Part shown: positions 450 through 25,120 of the stretch, one piece after another
How the letters are laid out: every line of letters begins with the position of its first letter
Numbering within the stretch: position 1 is the stretch's first letter
Sequence record: PZ445407.1
Direction: 5' to 3' (one strand)
Length of the DNA stretch: 47,731 bases
From: a phage
Notes under the pieces: generated by a model
The model's database searches: none
Told to the model about the DNA's origin: nothing
The model's input: only the letters and a program-made list of their open reading frames with translations
Made by a program: the position numbers and the translations under genes

Positions 450-470
450 CCACAAAAGCTGTGATAAACT

Positions 471-494
471 AGCCCCTGTTATGGGGCTTTTTAT
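471..494 (+). terminator. rho-independent terminator
   Basis: hairpin agcccc-tgttat-ggggct + T-run. Confidence 0.5.
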
Positions 495-505
495 TGGAGA
501 AAAAC

Positions 506-1768
506 ATGGTCAAGACAGACAGCTACGCCAATATCTTTCTCGGCGGCAGTGATGGTAGTGAGATTTACGGGAGTTTGCAGAATCAGGCGCCCACAATTCT
601 GGCCTCGCTTTATGCTGACAATGCTCTGGTGCGTCGAATTATCGACACAATACCGGAGACAGCATTAGCGGCAGGATTCCACATTGATGGTATTGATGAT
701 GAATCTGAATTCTGGTCTCACTGGGACGACCTGGAGCTAACAAAACACATCAATGAAGCCTGGTCATGGGCTAGATTGTTCGGTGGGTCTGCAATTGTTG
801 CTATCGTTAAGGACAATAGGGCGCTAACAAGTCCGGTCAGAGAAGGTGCCGAGCTTGAAACGGTTCGCGTTTACGACCGCACACAAGTAAAAGTACAAAC
901 CCGAGAGGAGAACCCACGCAACTCGCGCTTTGGTAAGCCGCTAACCTATCGCATCACAACAAACGAAAGCGATATGTTCTATGATGTGCATTACACCCGC
1001 ATTCACATCATTGACGGAGAGCGAGTCCCTAACGTAATGCGCCGTCAGAATGATGGATGGGGTAGAAGTGTTCTTTCTAGTGATATTCTTGACTCAATCA
1101 AGGATTACACGAACTGTGAACGACTTGCCACGCAATTACTGAAGCGTAAGCAGCAGGCGGTCTGGAAGGCGAAAGGGCTTGCTGAGTTGTGTGATGACAG
1201 CGAAGGATTTGGCGCGGCTCGATTACGACTTGCTCAGGTTGATAACAATAGTGGCGTGGGTCAGGCAATTGGCATTGACGCAGAATCTGAAGAGTACAGT
1301 GTTCTAAACTCTGATATCGGCGGGATTGATGCGTTTCTGGATAAGAAGTTTGACCGAATCGTTGCTCTGAGCGGCATTCATGAAATCATCCTGAAGAACA
1401 AGAACGTTGGCGGTGTATCTTCAAGCCAGAATACGGCGCTTGAGACATTCCACAAGCTGGTTGACCGCAAGCGTAATGCTGAGCTTCTGCCTATTCTTGA
1501 GTTCTTAATCCCGTTCATTGTTAATGTAGAAGAATGGTCAGTAGAGTTTAATCCTTTAGCGCAGGAGTCGAGCAAGGATAAAGCAGAGATTCTGGAGAAG
1601 AACGTAAACAGCATTGCGGCACTAATTGCAGCTGGCGCTATGGATACTAACGAGGCTCGTGATACACTACGAACTATCGCACCAGAGATTAAGATTGGTG
1701 ATGGAAATATCGAACCTGAAGAACCATCTAAGGAAGTAATCGCGACGACAGAGGAATCTAATGAATGA
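506..1768 (+). CDS. portal protein (putative)
   Basis: ~420 aa ORF immediately downstream of the terminase genes across the junction; ATG 506 preceded by ggag; position-based call. Confidence 0.55.
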   Translation: MVKTDSYANIFLGGSDGSEIYGSLQNQAPTILASLYADNALVRRIIDTIPETALAAGFHIDGIDDESEFWSHWDDLELTKHINEAWSWARLFGGSAIVAIVKDNRALTSPVREGAELETVRVYDRTQVKVQTREENPRNSRFGKPLTYRITTNESDMFYDVHYTRIHIIDGERVPNVMRRQNDGWGRSVLSSDILDSIKDYTNCERLATQLLKRKQQAVWKAKGLAELCDDSEGFGAARLRLAQVDNNSGVGQAIGIDAESEEYSVLNSDIGGIDAFLDKKFDRIVALSGIHEIILKNKNVGGVSSSQNTALETFHKLVDRKRNAELLPILEFLIPFIVNVEEWSVEFNPLAQESSKDKAEILEKNVNSIAALIAAGAMDTNEARDTLRTIAPEIKIGDGNIEPEEPSKEVIATTEESNE

Positions 1769-15270: not shown

Positions 15271-15320
15271 TTTAGTGTAGAATGGCGCAAATGATCAAAA
15301 CAAACATGAGGCTTTGTGAT

Positions 15321-18300
15321 ATGGCTGAAGAGATTAAGATTTATGGTGCTAAAGGCGGTAGCCAGAAGCAACACCAACCAGTGGAGCAGGAAGATAACCT
15401 TATTTCACTTAACAAGGTTAAGGTGTTACTTGCGGTTGCTGACGGAGAGGTGGACCCTAACTTCTCATTGAAGGATTTATACCTTGCTGACGTTCCGGTA
15501 CAAAACCAGAATGGCACATACAACTATGAAGGAGTTCGAGCCGAGTTTAGGGCTGGTACGCAGTATCAGGATTACATCGCTGGGCTTGATGGTGCAAACT
15601 CGGAGATTCAGGCTTCAAGGGAAATCACAAACGATACCCCGTACATCATTGCGGTTAACAATACTCAGCTATCAGCAATTCGAGTTAAACTCTTTTGGCC
15701 CAGACTAGTTAAGCAAGAAAGTAACGGAGACCTTGTTGGAACTACTTGCGAGTACGCAATTGACCTGTCTGTTAATGGTGGCGCTTACCAGGAATACACT
15801 CGGGGAGTTGCTAACGGCAAGACAACTACAGGTTACGATCGCAGCATTCGTGTAAACCTTCCTGCTGAATTTGATAGCGCACTGGTTCGCATCCGCAAGA
15901 TTACAGCGGACTCAACGAGTAGCACACTGGTAAACGGAATGCAAATTACAACCTATCAGGAAGTAATCGACGCTAAATTTCGCTACCCTCTTACGGCTCT
16001 GGTTTATGTTGAGTTTGGTTCTGACCTTTTTCCTAACGGGATCCCGACAATCTCAATCAAGAAGCGCTGGAAGCTAATTCAGGTTCCGACAAACTACAAC
16101 CCAGAGACCAGGACTTACAGCGGCACATGGAATGGCCTGTTCAAAATGGCATGGTCAAACAACCCAGCCTGGGTTCTTTATGATCTAGTGACAAATCGCC
16201 GCTATGGCCTTGACCAGCGAGAGTTGGGTGTAGAGATTGATAAGTGGGGGCTGTATGAAGCGGCGCAATTCTGTGACCAGATGGTTCCAGATGGCAAGGG
16301 TGGCTTAGAGCCGAGATACCTTTGCGATATGGTTGTTCAAAACAAGGTTGAGGCATACACACTAATTCGTGATATCTGTTCAATCTTCCGTGGACTAACT
16401 TTCTATGATGGCGAAAAGATTGGCATCGTTGTTGATAAGCCTCGCAATCCATCATACATCTTCACGAATGATAACGTTGTAAACGGATTATTCAGCCGCA
16501 CATTTGCCAGCGATAAGAGTCTTTACACTACCGCGAACGTACAGTTTGACGATGTGGAGAACAACTATCAGCAAGATGTTGAGCCGGTATTTGAACTGGA
16601 AGCAACTCGCCGATTCGGGTTTAATCCAGTCGATCTTACGGCAATCGGATGTACTCGCAGAAGTGAAGCAAACAGACGCGGCAGGTGGCTCCTGAAAACA
16701 AACCTGAGAAGCGAAACTATCAGCTTCACTACCGGATTGGAAGGCATGATTCCGATGATTGGTGAGGTTATCGCGGTCAACGATGCAGCATGGTCGAGCA
16801 ACTATCAGTTAAACCTTTCCGGTCGTATTGAATCAGTGCAGGGATTGCAGGTTTTTACACCGTTTAAAGTTGACGCGGCGCCGGGTGACAGAATTCTTCT
16901 GAACAAGCCAGACGGGAGCCCGGAGGCGAGAACTATTGCAAGCGTTTCGGAAGATGGTAGGACGATTAACCTGAACACGGCGTTCAGCTTTGTAGCTCAA
17001 CCTGATACTGTGTTCGCAATCGATAAGGACAATCTGGCGCTTCAGCAGTATGTTGTGACCGGGATTCAAAAAGCAGATTCTGACGGTTCGGATTCATTCC
17101 AGTACACAATTACCGCTGTAGAGTATGACCCAAACAAGTACGACGAGATTGATTATGGCGTAAACATTGTTGACCGCCCAACTTCAATTGTAGAGCCTGA
17201 CAGATTGTCGCCACCTGAGAATTTAACAGTATCAAGCTACAGCAAGATTGTTCAGGGCTTATCAGTTGAGACGATGGTGATTGGCTGGGACAAGGCGCCA
17301 TACGCTAAAACCTACAATGTTCAGTGGAGGAAAGAAAATGGCAACTGGATTAACGTACCAAGAACAGCTAGCACAGAGGTTGATATCGAAGGTATTTACG
17401 CAGGAATCTATGACGTTAGGGTTCGAAGCGTATCAGATACTGAAAACGTGTCTGCCTGGTCTGACATTGTAACGGTATCGCTAACTGGCAAGATTGGTCG
17501 CCCGTCGGCACCTACAGTTATCACGGCATCAACTGATGAAGTGTTTGGCATCCGTGTTAAGTGGGGATTCCCTGAGGGCTCTGGTGACACTGCTTACACT
17601 GAACTTCAGCAGGTTCCTGATAATGGTGATGGTACTTATAATCCTGATAATGCAAGTTTACTTACGTTACTTCCGTATCCGGCCTATGAATACTGGCACA
17701 CGCCAATTCAGCCTGGCAAGGTTATCTGGTATCGCGCAAGATTGATTGACAGAATCGGGAACACCTCTGATTGGTCTGATTTCGCGAGAGGCATGAGTAC
17801 TGATGATGCCAACATAATCAACGATTACATCAAGGTTGATATTGAGGGTTCGGAAGGATTCAAATATCTCGAGCAGAATGCGATTCAAAAGAACCAGGAT
17901 GTTCAGAACCAAGCCGAGGCAATTATCGAGAACGCATTGGCAAACGATACTGATGTTCGCCGCATGACAAAGGAGAATGGCGCCAGAAAGGCTGAGTTTG
18001 TTCAAGCAGTGAATCTCATAGCTGATGAAACTCAGGCGCGTGTAGAGGCTCTTACGCAGCTTAAGTCACAGATTGATGACGAGATTGTTGGTCAGATTAC
18101 AATGATTGAAACGGCGCTGGCTACAGAGACTGAAGCTAGAGCAACGGCTGACACTCAGCTATCAGCAAGGATTGGTGATAACGAGGCCGCTCTAAACCAG
18201 AAGCTGGACGCATTCTCTAACGCAACATCAACCGGTGTGCAGTACGGAATTAGTCTTGGCCTGAAATACAATGGACAGACTTATTCATCCGGTATGAGCA

Positions 18301-18677
18301 TGGAGCTTGTTGGAACTGGTGATAATGTTCGCAGTCAATTCATTTTTGACGCAAACAGATTCGCAATCAGTAACGGCATTGGTTCTGGTTCCGGTCAGTG
18401 GCAACTCCCCTTCGTTGTCGAGAACGGAAACGTAATCATCCAGAGCGCGGTAATCGGCGATGGCTCAATCAGTAACGCGAAGATTGGAAACTTTATTCAG
18501 TCCAATAACTATGTAGCTAACACTACTGGATGGAGACTTGATAAAGGCGGCACATTCGAGAATAACGGGTTCACACCTGGTGAAGGTAGAATGAAGCAGA
18601 CTAACCAGACAATTTCGGTTGCTGATGCTAACGGAAGGCTTCGTGTTCAGATTGGTCGTTTAACTGGAGTGTACTAA
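15321..18677 (+). CDS. tail tip / central fiber protein (lambda J-like host-specificity protein)
   Basis: ~1119 aa; N-terminus resembles J-type (YGAKGGSQKQ, FRAGTQ); ATG 15321 after gagg. Confidence 0.75.
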   Translation: MAEEIKIYGAKGGSQKQHQPVEQEDNLISLNKVKVLLAVADGEVDPNFSLKDLYLADVPVQNQNGTYNYEGVRAEFRAGTQYQDYIAGLDGANSEIQASREITNDTPYIIAVNNTQLSAIRVKLFWPRLVKQESNGDLVGTTCEYAIDLSVNGGAYQEYTRGVANGKTTTGYDRSIRVNLPAEFDSALVRIRKITADSTSSTLVNGMQITTYQEVIDAKFRYPLTALVYVEFGSDLFPNGIPTISIKKRWKLIQVPTNYNPETRTYSGTWNGLFKMAWSNNPAWVLYDLVTNRRYGLDQRELGVEIDKWGLYEAAQFCDQMVPDGKGGLEPRYLCDMVVQNKVEAYTLIRDICSIFRGLTFYDGEKIGIVVDKPRNPSYIFTNDNVVNGLFSRTFASDKSLYTTANVQFDDVENNYQQDVEPVFELEATRRFGFNPVDLTAIGCTRRSEANRRGRWLLKTNLRSETISFTTGLEGMIPMIGEVIAVNDAAWSSNYQLNLSGRIESVQGLQVFTPFKVDAAPGDRILLNKPDGSPEARTIASVSEDGRTINLNTAFSFVAQPDTVFAIDKDNLALQQYVVTGIQKADSDGSDSFQYTITAVEYDPNKYDEIDYGVNIVDRPTSIVEPDRLSPPENLTVSSYSKIVQGLSVETMVIGWDKAPYAKTYNVQWRKENGNWINVPRTASTEVDIEGIYAGIYDVRVRSVSDTENVSAWSDIVTVSLTGKIGRPSAPTVITASTDEVFGIRVKWGFPEGSGDTAYTELQQVPDNGDGTYNPDNASLLTLLPYPAYEYWHTPIQPGKVIWYRARLIDRIGNTSDWSDFARGMSTDDANIINDYIKVDIEGSEGFKYLEQNAIQKNQDVQNQAEAIIENALANDTDVRRMTKENGARKAEFVQAVNLIADETQARVEALTQLKSQIDDEIVGQITMIETALATETEARATADTQLSARIGDNEAALNQKLDAFSNATSTGVQYGISLGLKYNGQTYSSGMSMELVGTGDNVRSQFIFDANRFAISNGIGSGSGQWQLPFVVENGNVIIQSAVIGDGSISNAKIGNFIQSNNYVANTTGWRLDKGGTFENNGFTPGEGRMKQTNQTISVADANGRLRVQIGRLTGVY

Positions 18678-18724
18678 GTGATAGAATTGGCAAATGGATT
18701 TGCCTCTTTCAATTGGAGATAATT

Positions 18725-19033
18725 ATGGCTGAGTATGGAATTGCAACATATGATGCAAATGGTAATTACAATAACTATGGGATTAAGCCAGTGACGGTTG
18801 TTGGTGTTGTTAAACTCAATGAGGGTCAAACGTCCGGATCTTATACTTACAGCATCCCTTCTGGATACAAAGTTGGTTACTTTATAACCCTTGATTCCGC
18901 AAACACGCCAAACAATGGCAGGAACATAAGTGCGTCCGGCAACTCAATAACAATAACACCAAGCAATTCAACAGGACCAAACTACTACGCGGCAAGCGAG
19001 TGTGAAATGGTCGTTTATTTGGAGAAAGCATAA
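18725..19033 (+). CDS. hypothetical tail-associated protein
   Basis: ATG 18725 after ggag; N-terminus (MAEYGIATYDANGN) parallels the next gene. Confidence 0.4.
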   Translation: MAEYGIATYDANGNYNNYGIKPVTVVGVVKLNEGQTSGSYTYSIPSGYKVGYFITLDSANTPNNGRNISASGNSITITPSNSTGPNYYAASECEMVVYLEKA

Positions 19034-19704
19034 TGGCAGATTACGGAGCTATAATTGATGTGAATGGAAACCCATTTATCACACCTGCATCAACTCCATT
19101 TTGTCTATATGGAAAATATACCTACCAATCATCTGGCAACAGTGCTGCTCACAGCGTTACTCAATACATACCGATTGATTCAAGCTATCCGGTTTGCGCA
19201 TTCTTGAAAACCAGCAATACTGAGCAAGGTACGGCGGTGATAGCATATGCAATACGTAGCGGCGCGAATGCTGGAACTCTGTACGTGAATGGAACGAACT
19301 ATTCAGGCCAATCATTCACTCTAACCGTTTATGTTTTCGCTATATTCCCGCAAACCCTTCCGGCTTGGGGTATGGCGATATGGGATGCTAACGGGAAATT
19401 GGTTCTTACGAACGAAAGCAGGGTTCTTAGCGACCTGGAGACAGTACCAGGCTCAGGTTACACACTTGATTATACATATAATGGTAGTTACGCCGTTTCC
19501 CCGAGGGCGCTTGGTGCGGTTAACGTTTATCAGGTGCAGAACGGACAGCAGATTATAAGGAGCGCAACGGCTGGTGTTTCTTGCAGATTTGATGGTTCAC
19601 GAACAAGAATAAATGCGGTCCCTCTTATTAATGGAAGCGCCGCGAGTGGGGGTACTTCAAACGGTGGGCTTGTAACGGCGATCAATACAGCGGCATACGA
19701 TTAA
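19033..19704 (+). CDS. hypothetical tail-associated protein
   Basis: N-terminus MADYGAIIDVNGN similar to upstream gene; terminator follows. Confidence 0.4.
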   Translation: MADYGAIIDVNGNPFITPASTPFCLYGKYTYQSSGNSAAHSVTQYIPIDSSYPVCAFLKTSNTEQGTAVIAYAIRSGANAGTLYVNGTNYSGQSFTLTVYVFAIFPQTLPAWGMAIWDANGKLVLTNESRVLSDLETVPGSGYTLDYTYNGSYAVSPRALGAVNVYQVQNGQQIIRSATAGVSCRFDGSRTRINAVPLINGSAASGGTSNGGLVTAINTAAYD

Positions 19705-19727
19705 GCCCCTTTCGGGGCTTTTCTTTT
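19704..19727. terminator. bidirectional terminator between convergent genes
   Basis: agcccc-tttc-ggggct with T-run; same hairpin as 22964. Confidence 0.55.
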
Positions 19728-19947
19728 ACATTGAGCAATCGTGAGACTTAAAGTTATTCTCTGATACGTAGTGGAACGAGAATGGGTATCCAGCACGCAA
19801 TATCATCTCCTCACCGCGCATCTGAGAGCCAAAAACATAAACCGAGTACTCTGCTCCACCTGATTCATAAATCGCAGTACATGTGCGCTCTGGCATCGTA
19901 GAGCAACCACTCAGGAGTAATGCCGCAATAGTAATGATCTTCTTCAT
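19726..19947 (-). CDS. outer-membrane lipoprotein, Cor-like superinfection-exclusion candidate
   Basis: Signal peptide with lipobox LLSGC; small size; minus-strand island after tail genes. Confidence 0.5.
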   Translation of the reverse strand: MKKIITIAALLLSGCSTMPERTCTAIYESGGAEYSVYVFGSQMRGEEMILRAGYPFSFHYVSENNFKSHDCSM

Positions 19948-19957
19948 ATTTCTCACC

Positions 19958-20062
19958 TTAGAAACCGTTAAAATTAGAAGCCAGCATCAGAACCCAAACC
20001 AAGAAACCAGTTACAGCAGTGCCGGCGACCAGGGAGATTGAGTTGTTGATTAAGTTAGTCAT
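19958..20062 (-). CDS. small hydrophobic peptide (34 aa, MTNLINNSISLVAGTAVTGFLVWVLMLASNFNGF)
   Basis: Hand-translated; RBS gagggg; sits between palindrome promoter and Cor-like gene. Confidence 0.3.
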   Translation of the reverse strand: MTNLINNSISLVAGTAVTGFLVWVLMLASNFNGF

Positions 20063-22957: not shown

Positions 22958-22963
22958 ATATAA

Positions 22964-22990
22964 AGCCCCTTTCGGGGCTTTTTTTATTTT
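22964..22990. terminator. bidirectional terminator between SSB-like gene and convergent tail fiber
   Basis: agcccc-tttc-ggggct + TTTTTTT. Confidence 0.6.
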
Positions 22991-25098
22991 GCAATCCAGG
23001 TGCCTGGCGTTCCTGATGATGTGCAAATCCACTTTTCAATAAATGATGTTCCGCTTGGGTTTATGTTGTAAACAATATCACCAGCAACCCAGGTTAATGT
23101 TGTCGGAGCCGCTCCACCATAAGCTGTCGCCCTTGATTTGTTGTCAGTTCTGGTTAAAGATCCAAGTATGCTTGGGTTTGTTGCTGTATCGAATCTATTT
23201 CCATAGAAAGTTAAATATGGAAGCCCATCACCATACATCCTAACTGATGTGTCCGTAGTATTGGCTGATTCATTTCCAATTATAACCATACCTTGTGAAT
23301 TCCATGTTATATTTCTATAAAAACCATCAAAATAACAATTAATTATTGAGTTTTTTGATGTGTTTGCATCTATAGCAACATCCGTAGTTGATTCCCCTCC
23401 ATGAGTGAATCTACAGCCTTTGTATCTTACATTTACACCTCCAAAACCAACTTTTGAACACTCAGCTACAATGTCTGATATCTCAACTCCACCACCTCCA
23501 GAGAAAGAGAAAAGCTGCCCAACATTTGTCGCAGATGAAGAGCTAAATGAGCAGTTGGTCGCGTTATAAAAAGAAACGCATGGAGTTGCGAGCCTATTTC
23601 CAATCTGCTTAAGAACAAAGTTAGAGCAAACTATGTTAGACCCCTGTATTGAAACCATTGCGCTATTGGGTTGCGAGTTCCTGTAAATTGATGTGTTTGA
23701 TAAGTTAATGCTATTTAATCCACCCTCCTCGTTGTAAACATAAACGTCTATTTTTTGGTTGTTTGAAGACTGAACTCCAGATATCAATATTGATGATGAA
23801 CTGGATACATCATCATTCTGCGAGTAAACCCTTAATCCATACTCTGTATTGTTGTTTGTCGTGACATTGGAAACAATTGACCCAACACATCGCCACAACA
23901 AAATACCCCTACCAAGATTGTTAGCTGGAGCAACACCAGTGTTACCATTGTAGTTAAACTTTCCTGATAGTATTGAGTTATTGAAACCATCACGATCTTG
24001 AATTCCGCAAACTAGATTATTAAAAGACCTTGCTTTATCAATGATCATGTTGCGACATGATACCATCCTTAATCCATCTTGTGATCCCTTAGTTATGATG
24101 CAACCATCAACAAGTCCATACTCGCAGTTTTCCAATAGAATCATGTGTCCGTTGCCTGACGTGTTATCAAGACCTGTCCCAACAAATCTACCTCCAATTA
24201 TAGAGAAGTTGTTTGCGTAGCTAGCTCTCCATGCCGCAGTAACCAATTCACTTGTTAGCTGAATAGTTGAAGTGCCAAGCACTATATAATGCCCTGATCT
24301 GATCGTAACCTGCTTGCTTTGAATGTAGGTTCCAGCCGGAAAATAAACATTTAGAGAGGAGTTAAGCGCTGAGATAATGGCGTCAGAATCATCAGTAACA
24401 CCATCACCCTTTGCGCCAAAGTCCTTAACACTAACGAATCCCCTTGATGATATTTCACCCTTTGAGTAAACATCAAGGTTCTGCCTTGCTAGTGGCTTGT
24501 CTGTTAAGTCTGAGAGCGCCAAATCTTTTCTTAGTAGGTTCTGCGTGTCAAGTGACGCCGCATAATCTGCCGCCTCCTGCGCTGAAGTTGCTGCCGCGTC
24601 TTTGGCTGATAGTGCGCTGGTTGCACTTGCTGCCGCTGCATTCTTATCGGTGGTCACTTGGGCGGCATCATTTGCAACCTGTGCCCCAATAGAAACAACA
24701 TCACCATGCTGCGCGTCTACCTGAGCTACCTTTGATTCAAAATCCGCAGAGTCAAAGTTATTGAAAGCATCAACAGCATCTGCAATCTCAGTTTCACGTG
24801 ACTGATAGTAACGCAATGTTTCGGCAACATCCTGAGCTAAACCCTGAACGGTAATCCCATCATGAGCAAGGATCGCGTAACCAGTCCCAGCAGGAACAGT
24901 TTCAGAATTAGGATTATAAACATTAATCTGCGTATCGCTGATAATTTCTGAGATGGTGTAAATTTGTACTGGTTCAGTTTTAAATACAATTGTGGCGCCT
25001 GCCCTGATAAGAGTAAGAGGCGCCTTCCATGTCGTTCCTACGCCAGTCACCTCGCCATTTTCTACTAGTGACGCTGTTCCTAAGTCATAAATTGCCAT
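22984..25098 (-). CDS. tail fiber / tailspike with pectate-lyase-like beta-helix domain
   Basis: Motif VKDFGAKGDGVTDDSDAI followed by Asn/Ser/Gly-rich beta-helix-like repeats; Ala-rich coiled-coil N-terminal part. Confidence 0.65.
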   Translation of the reverse strand: MAIYDLGTASLVENGEVTGVGTTWKAPLTLIRAGATIVFKTEPVQIYTISEIISDTQINVYNPNSETVPAGTGYAILAHDGITVQGLAQDVAETLRYYQSRETEIADAVDAFNNFDSADFESKVAQVDAQHGDVVSIGAQVANDAAQVTTDKNAAAASATSALSAKDAAATSAQEAADYAASLDTQNLLRKDLALSDLTDKPLARQNLDVYSKGEISSRGFVSVKDFGAKGDGVTDDSDAIISALNSSLNVYFPAGTYIQSKQVTIRSGHYIVLGTSTIQLTSELVTAAWRASYANNFSIIGGRFVGTGLDNTSGNGHMILLENCEYGLVDGCIITKGSQDGLRMVSCRNMIIDKARSFNNLVCGIQDRDGFNNSILSGKFNYNGNTGVAPANNLGRGILLWRCVGSIVSNVTTNNNTEYGLRVYSQNDDVSSSSSILISGVQSSNNQKIDVYVYNEEGGLNSINLSNTSIYRNSQPNSAMVSIQGSNIVCSNFVLKQIGNRLATPCVSFYNATNCSFSSSSATNVGQLFSFSGGGGVEISDIVAECSKVGFGGVNVRYKGCRFTHGGESTTDVAIDANTSKNSIINCYFDGFYRNITWNSQGMVIIGNESANTTDTSVRMYGDGLPYLTFYGNRFDTATNPSILGSLTRTDNKSRATAYGGAAPTTLTWVAGDIVYNINPSGTSFIEKWICTSSGTPGTWIAK

Positions 25099-25120
25099 TG
25101 TAAAGTCTCCATTTGTAAAA

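Follow-up and report, generated by a model that had tools for sequence, protein, structure and literature searches.

The tailspikes DpK2 of Klebsiella phage RAD2 (7LZJ) and Depo32 (7VYV/7VZ3) are K2 capsule depolymerases of T1-like Klebsiella siphoviruses. DpK2 forms globular appendages on the siphovirus tail, and in its chain a triple-helical bundle at the N-terminus is followed by a beta-helix and then by a C-terminal domain (PMC8552709). For the lateral tail fibres of Drexlerviridae, a primary and dispensable role in O-antigen binding has been proposed, with the BASEL authors stating that O-antigen use by these fibres has "never" been shown directly; the terminal receptor is decided by a separate locus downstream of J, termed the 'bona fide RBP locus' (PMC8594841). 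A 2026 receptor-prediction preprint covers, among Drexlerviridae, the J-downstream locus only, and a literature search for the lateral fibre protein of phage JulesPiccard (Bas03), which is the subject of the present analysis, yielded only unrelated matches.

JulesPiccard (Bas03, MZ501087, 47,731 bp) is assigned to Drexlerviridae, Braunvirinae, Guelphvirus (Maffei et al. 2021 supplementary tables, PMC8594841). Its terminal receptor has been experimentally determined as FhuA, and its proposed primary receptor is given as "LPS / O-antigen?" (PMC8594841). The window, by which we denote the whole stretch of 47,731 nucleotides analysed here, is the complete genome of this Escherichia phage, and a 22-kb stretch of it is ~86-87% identical to SU57, DTL, JeanPiccard and other T1/Rtp-like coliphages. 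A single 704-codon open reading frame fills the fibre gene on the minus strand and reads leftward, no long reading frame being found on the plus strand of the same segment; its product is 100% identical to the annotated "lateral tail fiber protein [Escherichia phage JulesPiccard]". According to the annotation of its neighbours, the gene lies between the SSB/Erf/exonuclease genes and primase, separate from the main tail module, a position that has been described for the fibre locus of all BASEL Drexlerviridae (PMC8594841). The GC-rich hairpin that separates the convergent SSB and fibre genes is a probable bidirectional terminator. The features discussed below are collected in Table 1. They are best explained, with a probability of roughly 0.6, by a lateral receptor-binding protein of a T1-like siphovirus whose working end is a tailspike that binds O-antigen and probably cleaves it.

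Table 1. Features of the lateral fibre gene and of the adsorption apparatus in the JulesPiccard genome.
Feature	Position	Strand	Residues or size	Remarks
Lateral tail fibre / tailspike gene	22984..25098	(-)	704 aa	Stop codon 22984-22986; ORF list and translation
N-terminal virion-anchor domain	24850..25098	(-)	aa 1-83	Beta-rich; pLDDT 40-72, low confidence in monomer model
Ala-rich helical stalk	24454..24849	(-)	aa 84-215	Long helix 84-182, then short linker helices to aa ~218
Right-handed parallel beta-helix receptor-binding domain	23137..24453	(-)	aa 216-654	
N-cap motif VKDFGAKGDGVTDDSDAI	24376..24429	(-)	aa 224-241	
Family-invariant polar patch, four successive rungs	23734..24018	(-)	aa 361-455	Conservation in 99 homologues and alignment A2
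Locally divergent patch in helix	23569..23748	(-)	aa 451-510	Sliding-window comparison with L001/P0002
C-terminal ~50-aa module (APTTLTW..GD...P.G....W.CT..GTPGTW)	22987..23136	(-)	aa 655-704	
GC-rich hairpin	22962..22981	.		Between convergent SSB (+) and fibre (-) genes; terminator scan, consensus match only
GGAGA ribosome-binding site	25106..25110	(-)		7 nt upstream of fibre ATG; sequence read, consensus match only
Hairpin and T-run	25185-25168			3' of upstream primase gene; terminator scan, consensus match only
Lambda-J-like central tail fibre / tip protein	15282..18677	(+)	1131 aa	phrog_31, E 0
Two-gene locus downstream of J	18713..19704	(+)	106 aa and 223 aa	phrog_557, phrog_425
Cor superinfection-exclusion lipoprotein	19726..19947	(-)	73 aa	Lipobox LLSGC; phrog_1119, E 1.3e-28

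Three modules make up the fibre protein: a virion anchor conserved in the family, a helical stalk rich in Ala and an exchangeable beta-helix. A preliminary description of this DNA had regarded it as a receptor-binding fibre, and its N-terminus agrees with this assignment: residues 1 to ~175 constitute the conserved Drexlerviridae lateral-fibre anchor, with PHROG tail-fibre families matching residues 1-175 and residues 1-174 matching the N-termini of DpK2 and Depo32 (7lzj, 7vyv, 7vz3) at E-values of ~1e-33. At the nucleotide level, 38 phage records, Rtp rtp50 among them, are related to the gene by megablast solely over its initial 300-650 nt (80-89% identity), the anchor being 84-89% identical to the fibres of Rtp, IME253, SU57 and other Drexlerviridae. 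Both this family-shared anchor and the location between recombination genes (exonuclease, Erf, SSB) and primase/helicase identify the protein as a Drexlerviridae lateral tail fibre. The fibres of Rtp (rtp50), IME253, SU57, AugustePiccard and JeanPiccard have the same locus, strand arrangement and conserved 5' gene end, and their receptor-binding part is different in each phage. The O-serotype-reading fibre of a Cronobacter Drexlerviridae phage differs from the JulesPiccard protein in being a fibre-type RBP with an S74 chaperone.

For the stalk segment, which contains 27% alanine, an AlphaFold2 model of the monomer yields DSSP helices at residues 84-113, 117-182 and others, with pLDDT values of about 80-90 at residues 110-180. 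The stalk is likely to be the counterpart of the DpK2 helical bundle, and presumably forms a trimeric helical bundle itself, the trimeric state being carried over from DpK2 to our monomer model. Like the JulesPiccard protein, DpK2 and Depo32 sit laterally on a tail of the Drexlerviridae type, and beyond the homologous N-terminal ~175 residues, DpK2 shares with it the entire module order of anchor, helical bundle, right-handed beta-helix and C-terminal domain. With its succession of anchor, beta-helix and C-terminal domain, and a module junction at residue ~210, the protein is thus laid out as a phage tailspike depolymerase. That it represents a glycan-binding trimeric spike appears very likely.

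The preliminary description had further claimed a pectate-lyase-like beta-helix in the fibre, to be checked by a profile search and a structure prediction, and both of these, together with fold searches, bear out the helix. PF12708 matches residues 221-427 with 43.4 bits at a cut-off of 27 (E 4.4e-11, Pfam), while PF13229, at 20.9 bits, stays under its cut-off of 25.9. In the AlphaFold2 monomer model, residues ~220-704 are confidently predicted as an all-beta structure with three regular strands per rung, with block pLDDT values mostly at 94-98, and Foldseek searches agree with a beta-helix fold. The profile match with its GAxGDGxTDD N-cap, as well as the many rungs of a three-stranded right-handed parallel beta-helix, place the domain in the pectin-lyase-like right-handed beta-helix superfamily (PF12708/PF13229 clan). 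The Asn/Ser/Gly-rich stretch noted earlier after the cap motif is also found: the 489 residues from position 216 onward contain 10.0% Asn, 12.5% Ser and 11.2% Gly, compared to 5.3%, 6.9% and 7.7% in the long open reading frames of the window.

The motif VKDFGAKGDGVTDDSDAI had been taken as the hallmark of tailspike enzymes, which holds for the fold, but not for the enzyme. A profile built from 23 members of the helix family and run against all PDB sequences matches PfbA (1.3e-21), GH55 glucanases, phi29 gp12, AlgE4/6, iota-carrageenase, the Sf6 tailspike and K5 lyase, with all these matches confined to the N-cap and the first rungs. The motif is, as judged from the sequence, the cap found at the N-terminus of PF12708-type beta-helices, and does not mark a catalytic site; because the cap also occurs in the non-enzymatic adhesin PfbA, it proves the fold, not catalysis. 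Similarly, the label "pectate-lyase-like" is appropriate for the fold, but not for the family: in Pfam, no pectate-lyase or GH28 family matches the fibre protein even at E <= 1, and an NCBIfam rhamnogalacturonidase model reaches 20 bits, at a cut-off of 500, over the N-cap only. A catalytic-domain model that would make the protein a bona fide pectate lyase (PL1/PL3/PL9) or GH28 pectinase therefore finds no match, and none of the canonical CAZy-family catalytic motifs is recognised in it by Pfam or NCBIfam.

Neither Foldseek nor the profile search of the PDB detected a solved structure with more than 20% identity to the beta-helix. Among predicted viral structures, Foldseek finds nothing beyond generic 'tail fiber', 'tail spike' and 'pectate lyase superfamily' proteins of 10-34% identity, none of them characterised. 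The O-antigen endoglycosidase tailspikes of P22, Sf6, HK620 and Det7 are 11-15% identical to the JulesPiccard spike in structural alignments, but sequence similarity is restricted to the N-cap, and their catalytic residues are not alignable here; for Sf6 TSP, the match (E 7e-8) covers profile positions 16-140 only, i.e. the cap and first rungs, and homology to the P22/Sf6/HK620 endoglycosidases does not extend across the catalytic rungs. Further structural neighbours, at 18-20% identity, are the phi29 gp12 pre-neck appendage and the A-module of the mannuronan C-5 epimerase AlgE4. AlgE-type epimerases use a YG(F/I)DPH(D/E) motif. At the inferred equivalent place, the JulesPiccard spike has EYGLRVYS and lacks DPH, and is thus not an AlgE-type mannuronan C-5 epimerase/lyase by this motif, so that AlgE chemistry is not transferable to it. 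With profile matches ending after the N-cap and first rungs, and no Pfam or NCBIfam enzyme family matched, we dropped the derivation of a catalytic mechanism from homology to solved enzymes.

The lambda-J-like central fibre and the Cor-like lipoprotein of the preliminary description are both present in the window, the former matching phrog_31 and the Pfam families FNIII-A_GpJ (3e-38) and Phage_Tail_Tip (7.8e-37), the latter matching phrog_1119 and carrying a lipobox (Table 1). The two-gene locus at 18713-19704 corresponds to the one to which the BASEL authors assign the choice of terminal receptor, FhuA for this phage (PMC8594841). The two-step adsorption that had been suggested on their account fits the published Bas03 receptor model and the J, RBP-locus and Cor genes, and is supported as a scheme already published for this phage family. 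In published plating data, Bas03 has an efficiency of plating of about 0.4-2.8 on K-12 rfaC, rfaG and wecB mutants and lyses E. coli B; it forms no plaques once the O16 antigen of K-12 is restored, and does not lyse UTI89, CFT073, 55989 or two S. Typhimurium strains, leaving none of the smooth strains in these data with plaques. It follows that the spike is dispensable on rough hosts, that it requires neither LPS core nor ECA, and that it is unable to handle O16.

The genomic surroundings of related helices bear on the nature of the glycan. We looked up three temperate relatives, and in all three an O-antigen-modification cassette lies directly beside the tailspike gene: an Acyl_transf_3 (oac-like) gene, along with an integrase, in a P22-like element (P0044, 44% identity); gtrA-gtrB-gtrC in a P22-like prophage of E. 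coli (P0144, 34%); and a gtrA-gtrB-gtrC-like cassette, located downstream of a J-like gene, in an Enterobacter hormaechei prophage (P0125, 43%). In P22, Sf6 and Shigella serotype-converting phages, such cassettes alter the O-antigen that the same phage uses as its receptor. The neighbouring gtrABC/oac cassettes, seen against this precedent, favour O-antigen over capsule as the target, and we consider O-antigen the somewhat more probable glycan, although its exact structure need not be the same as for these relatives, given identities of only 34-44%. The observation that DpK2, the solved relative of the anchor, targets capsule speaks against O-antigen, and a depolymerase of capsule (K-antigen) or exopolysaccharide, possibly a lyase on uronic-acid polymers, would be the first alternative, which in view of the cassettes we regard as unlikely. 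We abandoned the assignment of a serotype through 5,426 complete E. coli genomes, in which a blastn search in distant mode found no match to the helix DNA; for the P0044 gene, matches in E. coli genomes were limited to the 5' end that encodes the head-binding part.

For the O-antigen-directed spike that we favour, a site of action is suggested by the conservation of the helix, which was scored on 99 homologues covering more than 400 helix residues, down to about 25-30% identity; a cleaner alignment of 23 sequences (A2) repeats the same picture. A polar patch is formed by N361, G365, D368 and R369, the last two conserved at about 70%, and by the (nearly) invariant residues N384-G385, G396-R397-G398, W402, N417, E419-Y420-G421, R423, Y425-S426, D430, N447, D451 and Y455. 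In the AlphaFold2 monomer, the patch residues fall on the first strand of consecutive rungs (strands 364-369, 397-402, 420-426 and 450-456), and R369, W402, R423, Y425, D451 and Y453 would all face outward on the same sheet, as deduced from the G-hydrophobic-x-hydrophobic-x register of the strands, which, rather than geometry, is the basis for placing the conserved residues in a groove. Such a stripe of charged and aromatic residues would be expected of a glycan groove whose catalytic apparatus is fixed, making the patch a candidate glycan-binding or catalytic site. By their conservation, E419, D430 and D451 are candidate catalytic carboxylates, and R397, R423, Y420 and Y425 further candidates, with the Arg and Tyr residues leaving open the possibility of a lyase-type mechanism.

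A beta-helix could of course also bind its glycan reversibly without cleaving it, as a non-catalytic adhesin. However, R397, E419, R423, D430 and D451 are near-invariant across homologues that presumably see different glycans, a pattern that fits a conserved catalytic apparatus better than a binding site that determines specificity. In addition, to our knowledge, nearly all characterised phage beta-helix spikes of this architecture are enzymes. We therefore consider a pure adhesin improbable, and cleavage of the glycan by the spike a reasonably likely candidate activity, which makes "depolymerase" a reasonable, if provisional, term.

The C-terminal module is itself nearly invariant in the family, with P665, G673, W690, C692, G696, G699, T700 and W701 conserved at >=90%. 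Numerous other proteins carry it on its own at their C-termini, and it has the look of an independently mobile element that may serve as a trimer cap or in folding. An identification of these 50 residues as PF27114 (Phage_tail_beta) was rejected, as PF27114 precedes the beta-helix in homologues and has no match in the JulesPiccard protein.

A tblastn search of the GenBank phage collection found this helix in no other Drexlerviridae phage, the best matches coming from Escherichia phage KKP 3715, of 71 kb, where 94% of the query aligns at 44% identity, and from an Enterobacter phage of 153 kb (34% identity). Searches of large protein collections place the helix after the same Drexlerviridae anchor in the two closest homologues, P0002 (89% identity) and P0003 (63%), whose genes reside in the same primase, fibre, SSB-Erf context; in other phages it is fused to P22 head-binding domains or to TSP1/gp66-type N-termini, and it also forms ~510-residue proteins almost without an N-terminal extension. 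An exhaustive search gave 43 cluster representatives at E < 1e-30, indicating a family of modest size. Relative to P0002, an environmental homologue, nucleotide identity amounts to 77-94% up to residue 210, and at the junction it jumps from about 80% to 97% (residues 211-240), and the proportion of synonymous differences drops from 0.48 in residues 1-215 to 0.14 in residues 216-704. Thus, the helix appears to have been exchanged between diverged backbones after their anchors had split. Within the helix, residues 451-510 stand out with 76% nucleotide identity to this homologue, compared to 94-98% around them, and one may speculate that this patch sets specificity.

In the same comparison, dN/dS is 0.08 for residues 1-215 and 0.41 for residues 216-704, pointing to weaker constraint on the helix than on anchor and stalk, with 0 differences at the family-invariant residues. 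If the phage needed FhuA only, the spike could be a remnant in decay or without function, which would accord with full-efficiency plating on E. coli B and rough mutants of K-12 and with the lack of plaques on all smooth strains tested, but we reject this highly implausible reading on account of these dN/dS values and of an intact 704-codon reading frame with its ribosome-binding site, to which the retention of all family-invariant residues and the confident structure prediction can be added.

A beta-helix spike in this place is a common variant and routine for enterobacterial phages: 38 of 109 listed proteins sharing only the anchor, about one third, carry a precomputed beta-helix Pfam match (PF12708, PF13229 or PF27114), others among them having S74 chaperone, GDPD or other domains, and one relative, the SU57 protein, is already annotated as "tail spike protein". 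According to the second BASEL paper (PMC11990801), many unrelated phages carry homologous tailspikes of the pectin-lyase-like type, which have often been exchanged horizontally.

For a tailspike that binds and probably cleaves O-antigen, adsorption may be envisaged as follows. The conserved N-terminal domain would plug the spike into the tail, with the Ala-rich stalk probably forming a trimeric bundle, and the exchangeable beta-helix, together with the small C-terminal cap, would recognise the surface polysaccharide of the host. A matching O-antigen would be bound along the conserved groove (R369/R397/W402/E419-Y420/R423/Y425/D451) and probably cleaved, allowing the virion to work its way down the glycan layer to the outer membrane, where the J-tip RBP would bind FhuA irreversibly and DNA injection would follow. 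Infection of E. coli K-12, B and other rough hosts would, in this scheme, not depend on the spike.

Tentatively, and with less confidence than for the reading as a whole, the helix might represent an uncharacterised family of glycan-processing enzymes, with about 100 detectable members in phages and prophages of E. coli and Enterobacter and with an invariant site of its own (GRG-W / N-EYG-R-YS / D / N-D-Y). If so, it would constitute a new glycoside-hydrolase or polysaccharide-lyase family for certain enterobacterial O-antigens, and Bas03 would offer a tractable system for the first direct proof of enzymatic O-antigen processing by the lateral appendages of Drexlerviridae. With its clean junction at residue ~210, the protein could conveniently serve as a scaffold on which glycan-specific modules are swapped. 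Should the spike prove active, one could read from its specificity which smooth strains are the natural hosts of Bas03, a widely used BASEL reference phage so far known to infect rough laboratory strains only, and the assumption of the BASEL authors that the side appendages of T1-like phages work on O-antigen would be put on an experimental footing.

The β-helix of the spike is not uniformly conserved. Relative to the closest homologue it is 94–98% identical elsewhere, whereas the patch directly past the invariant polar site falls to 76% nucleotide identity and carries 14 amino-acid changes. This patch may be a specificity-determining surface or, alternatively, a micro-recombination tract. In an exhaustive protein search, dozens of proteins that differ widely in length matched the spike in its C-terminal residues alone, in each case at the C-terminus of the matching protein, and tblastn located the same module in tail proteins of Dickeya phage RC-2014 and Arthrobacter phage Xenomorph. 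This segment behaves as a module with a mobility of its own, and it may act as a trimer cap or as a folding aid.

Features of the phage genome (window) and of the related prophage locus (L006/L007)
Feature	Location	Residues	Strand	Remarks
Small ORF	window 19958-20062		-	34 aa, MTNLINNSISLVAGTAVTGFLVWVLMLASNFNGF, strongly hydrophobic
C-terminal spike module	window 22987-23136	655-704	-	~50 residues, LTW..GD...P.G....W.CT..GTPGTW
Divergent β-helix patch	window 23569-23748	451-510	-	
Homologous spike	L006/L007 7001-9112			TSP1/gp66-type N-terminus; lambdoid Enterobacter hormaechei prophage

Directly upstream of the superinfection-exclusion gene cor, and on the same strand, lies a small ORF for which a PHROG comparison returned no match; it may encode a small membrane protein that is co-expressed with the Cor lipoprotein. 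Among related GenBank records, MG065688.1 (‘Campylobacter phage A110b’) and PP134917.1 (‘Pseudomonas phage PsgS01F’) are ~86% identical to the T1-like coliphage group over 76–80% of a 22-kb query. The PsgS01F record equals that of an E. coli phage (PQ314493.1) both in length (44,679 bp) and in match statistics. The host labels of both records look doubtful.

Among the spike homologues, the Drexlerviridae anchor is joined to very different distal domains (e.g. in P0103, P0064, P0096, P0106 and P0113): in the phage DTL homologue (P0103) it is followed by a GDPD phosphodiesterase (PF03009), and elsewhere by an S74 intramolecular chaperone (PF13884), PF25670, PF09992 or Peptidase_G2 (PF11962). Such variety behind a single anchor suggests that the lateral-fibre locus spans a broad range of glycan or teichoic-like substrates. 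In the Enterobacter prophage, a J-like gene is followed directly by the homologous spike and then by a gtr cassette; in Drexlerviridae, this slot next to J belongs to the RBP locus for the terminal receptor. The same helix is therefore used at a ‘lateral’ or a ‘central’ position, depending on the siphovirus.
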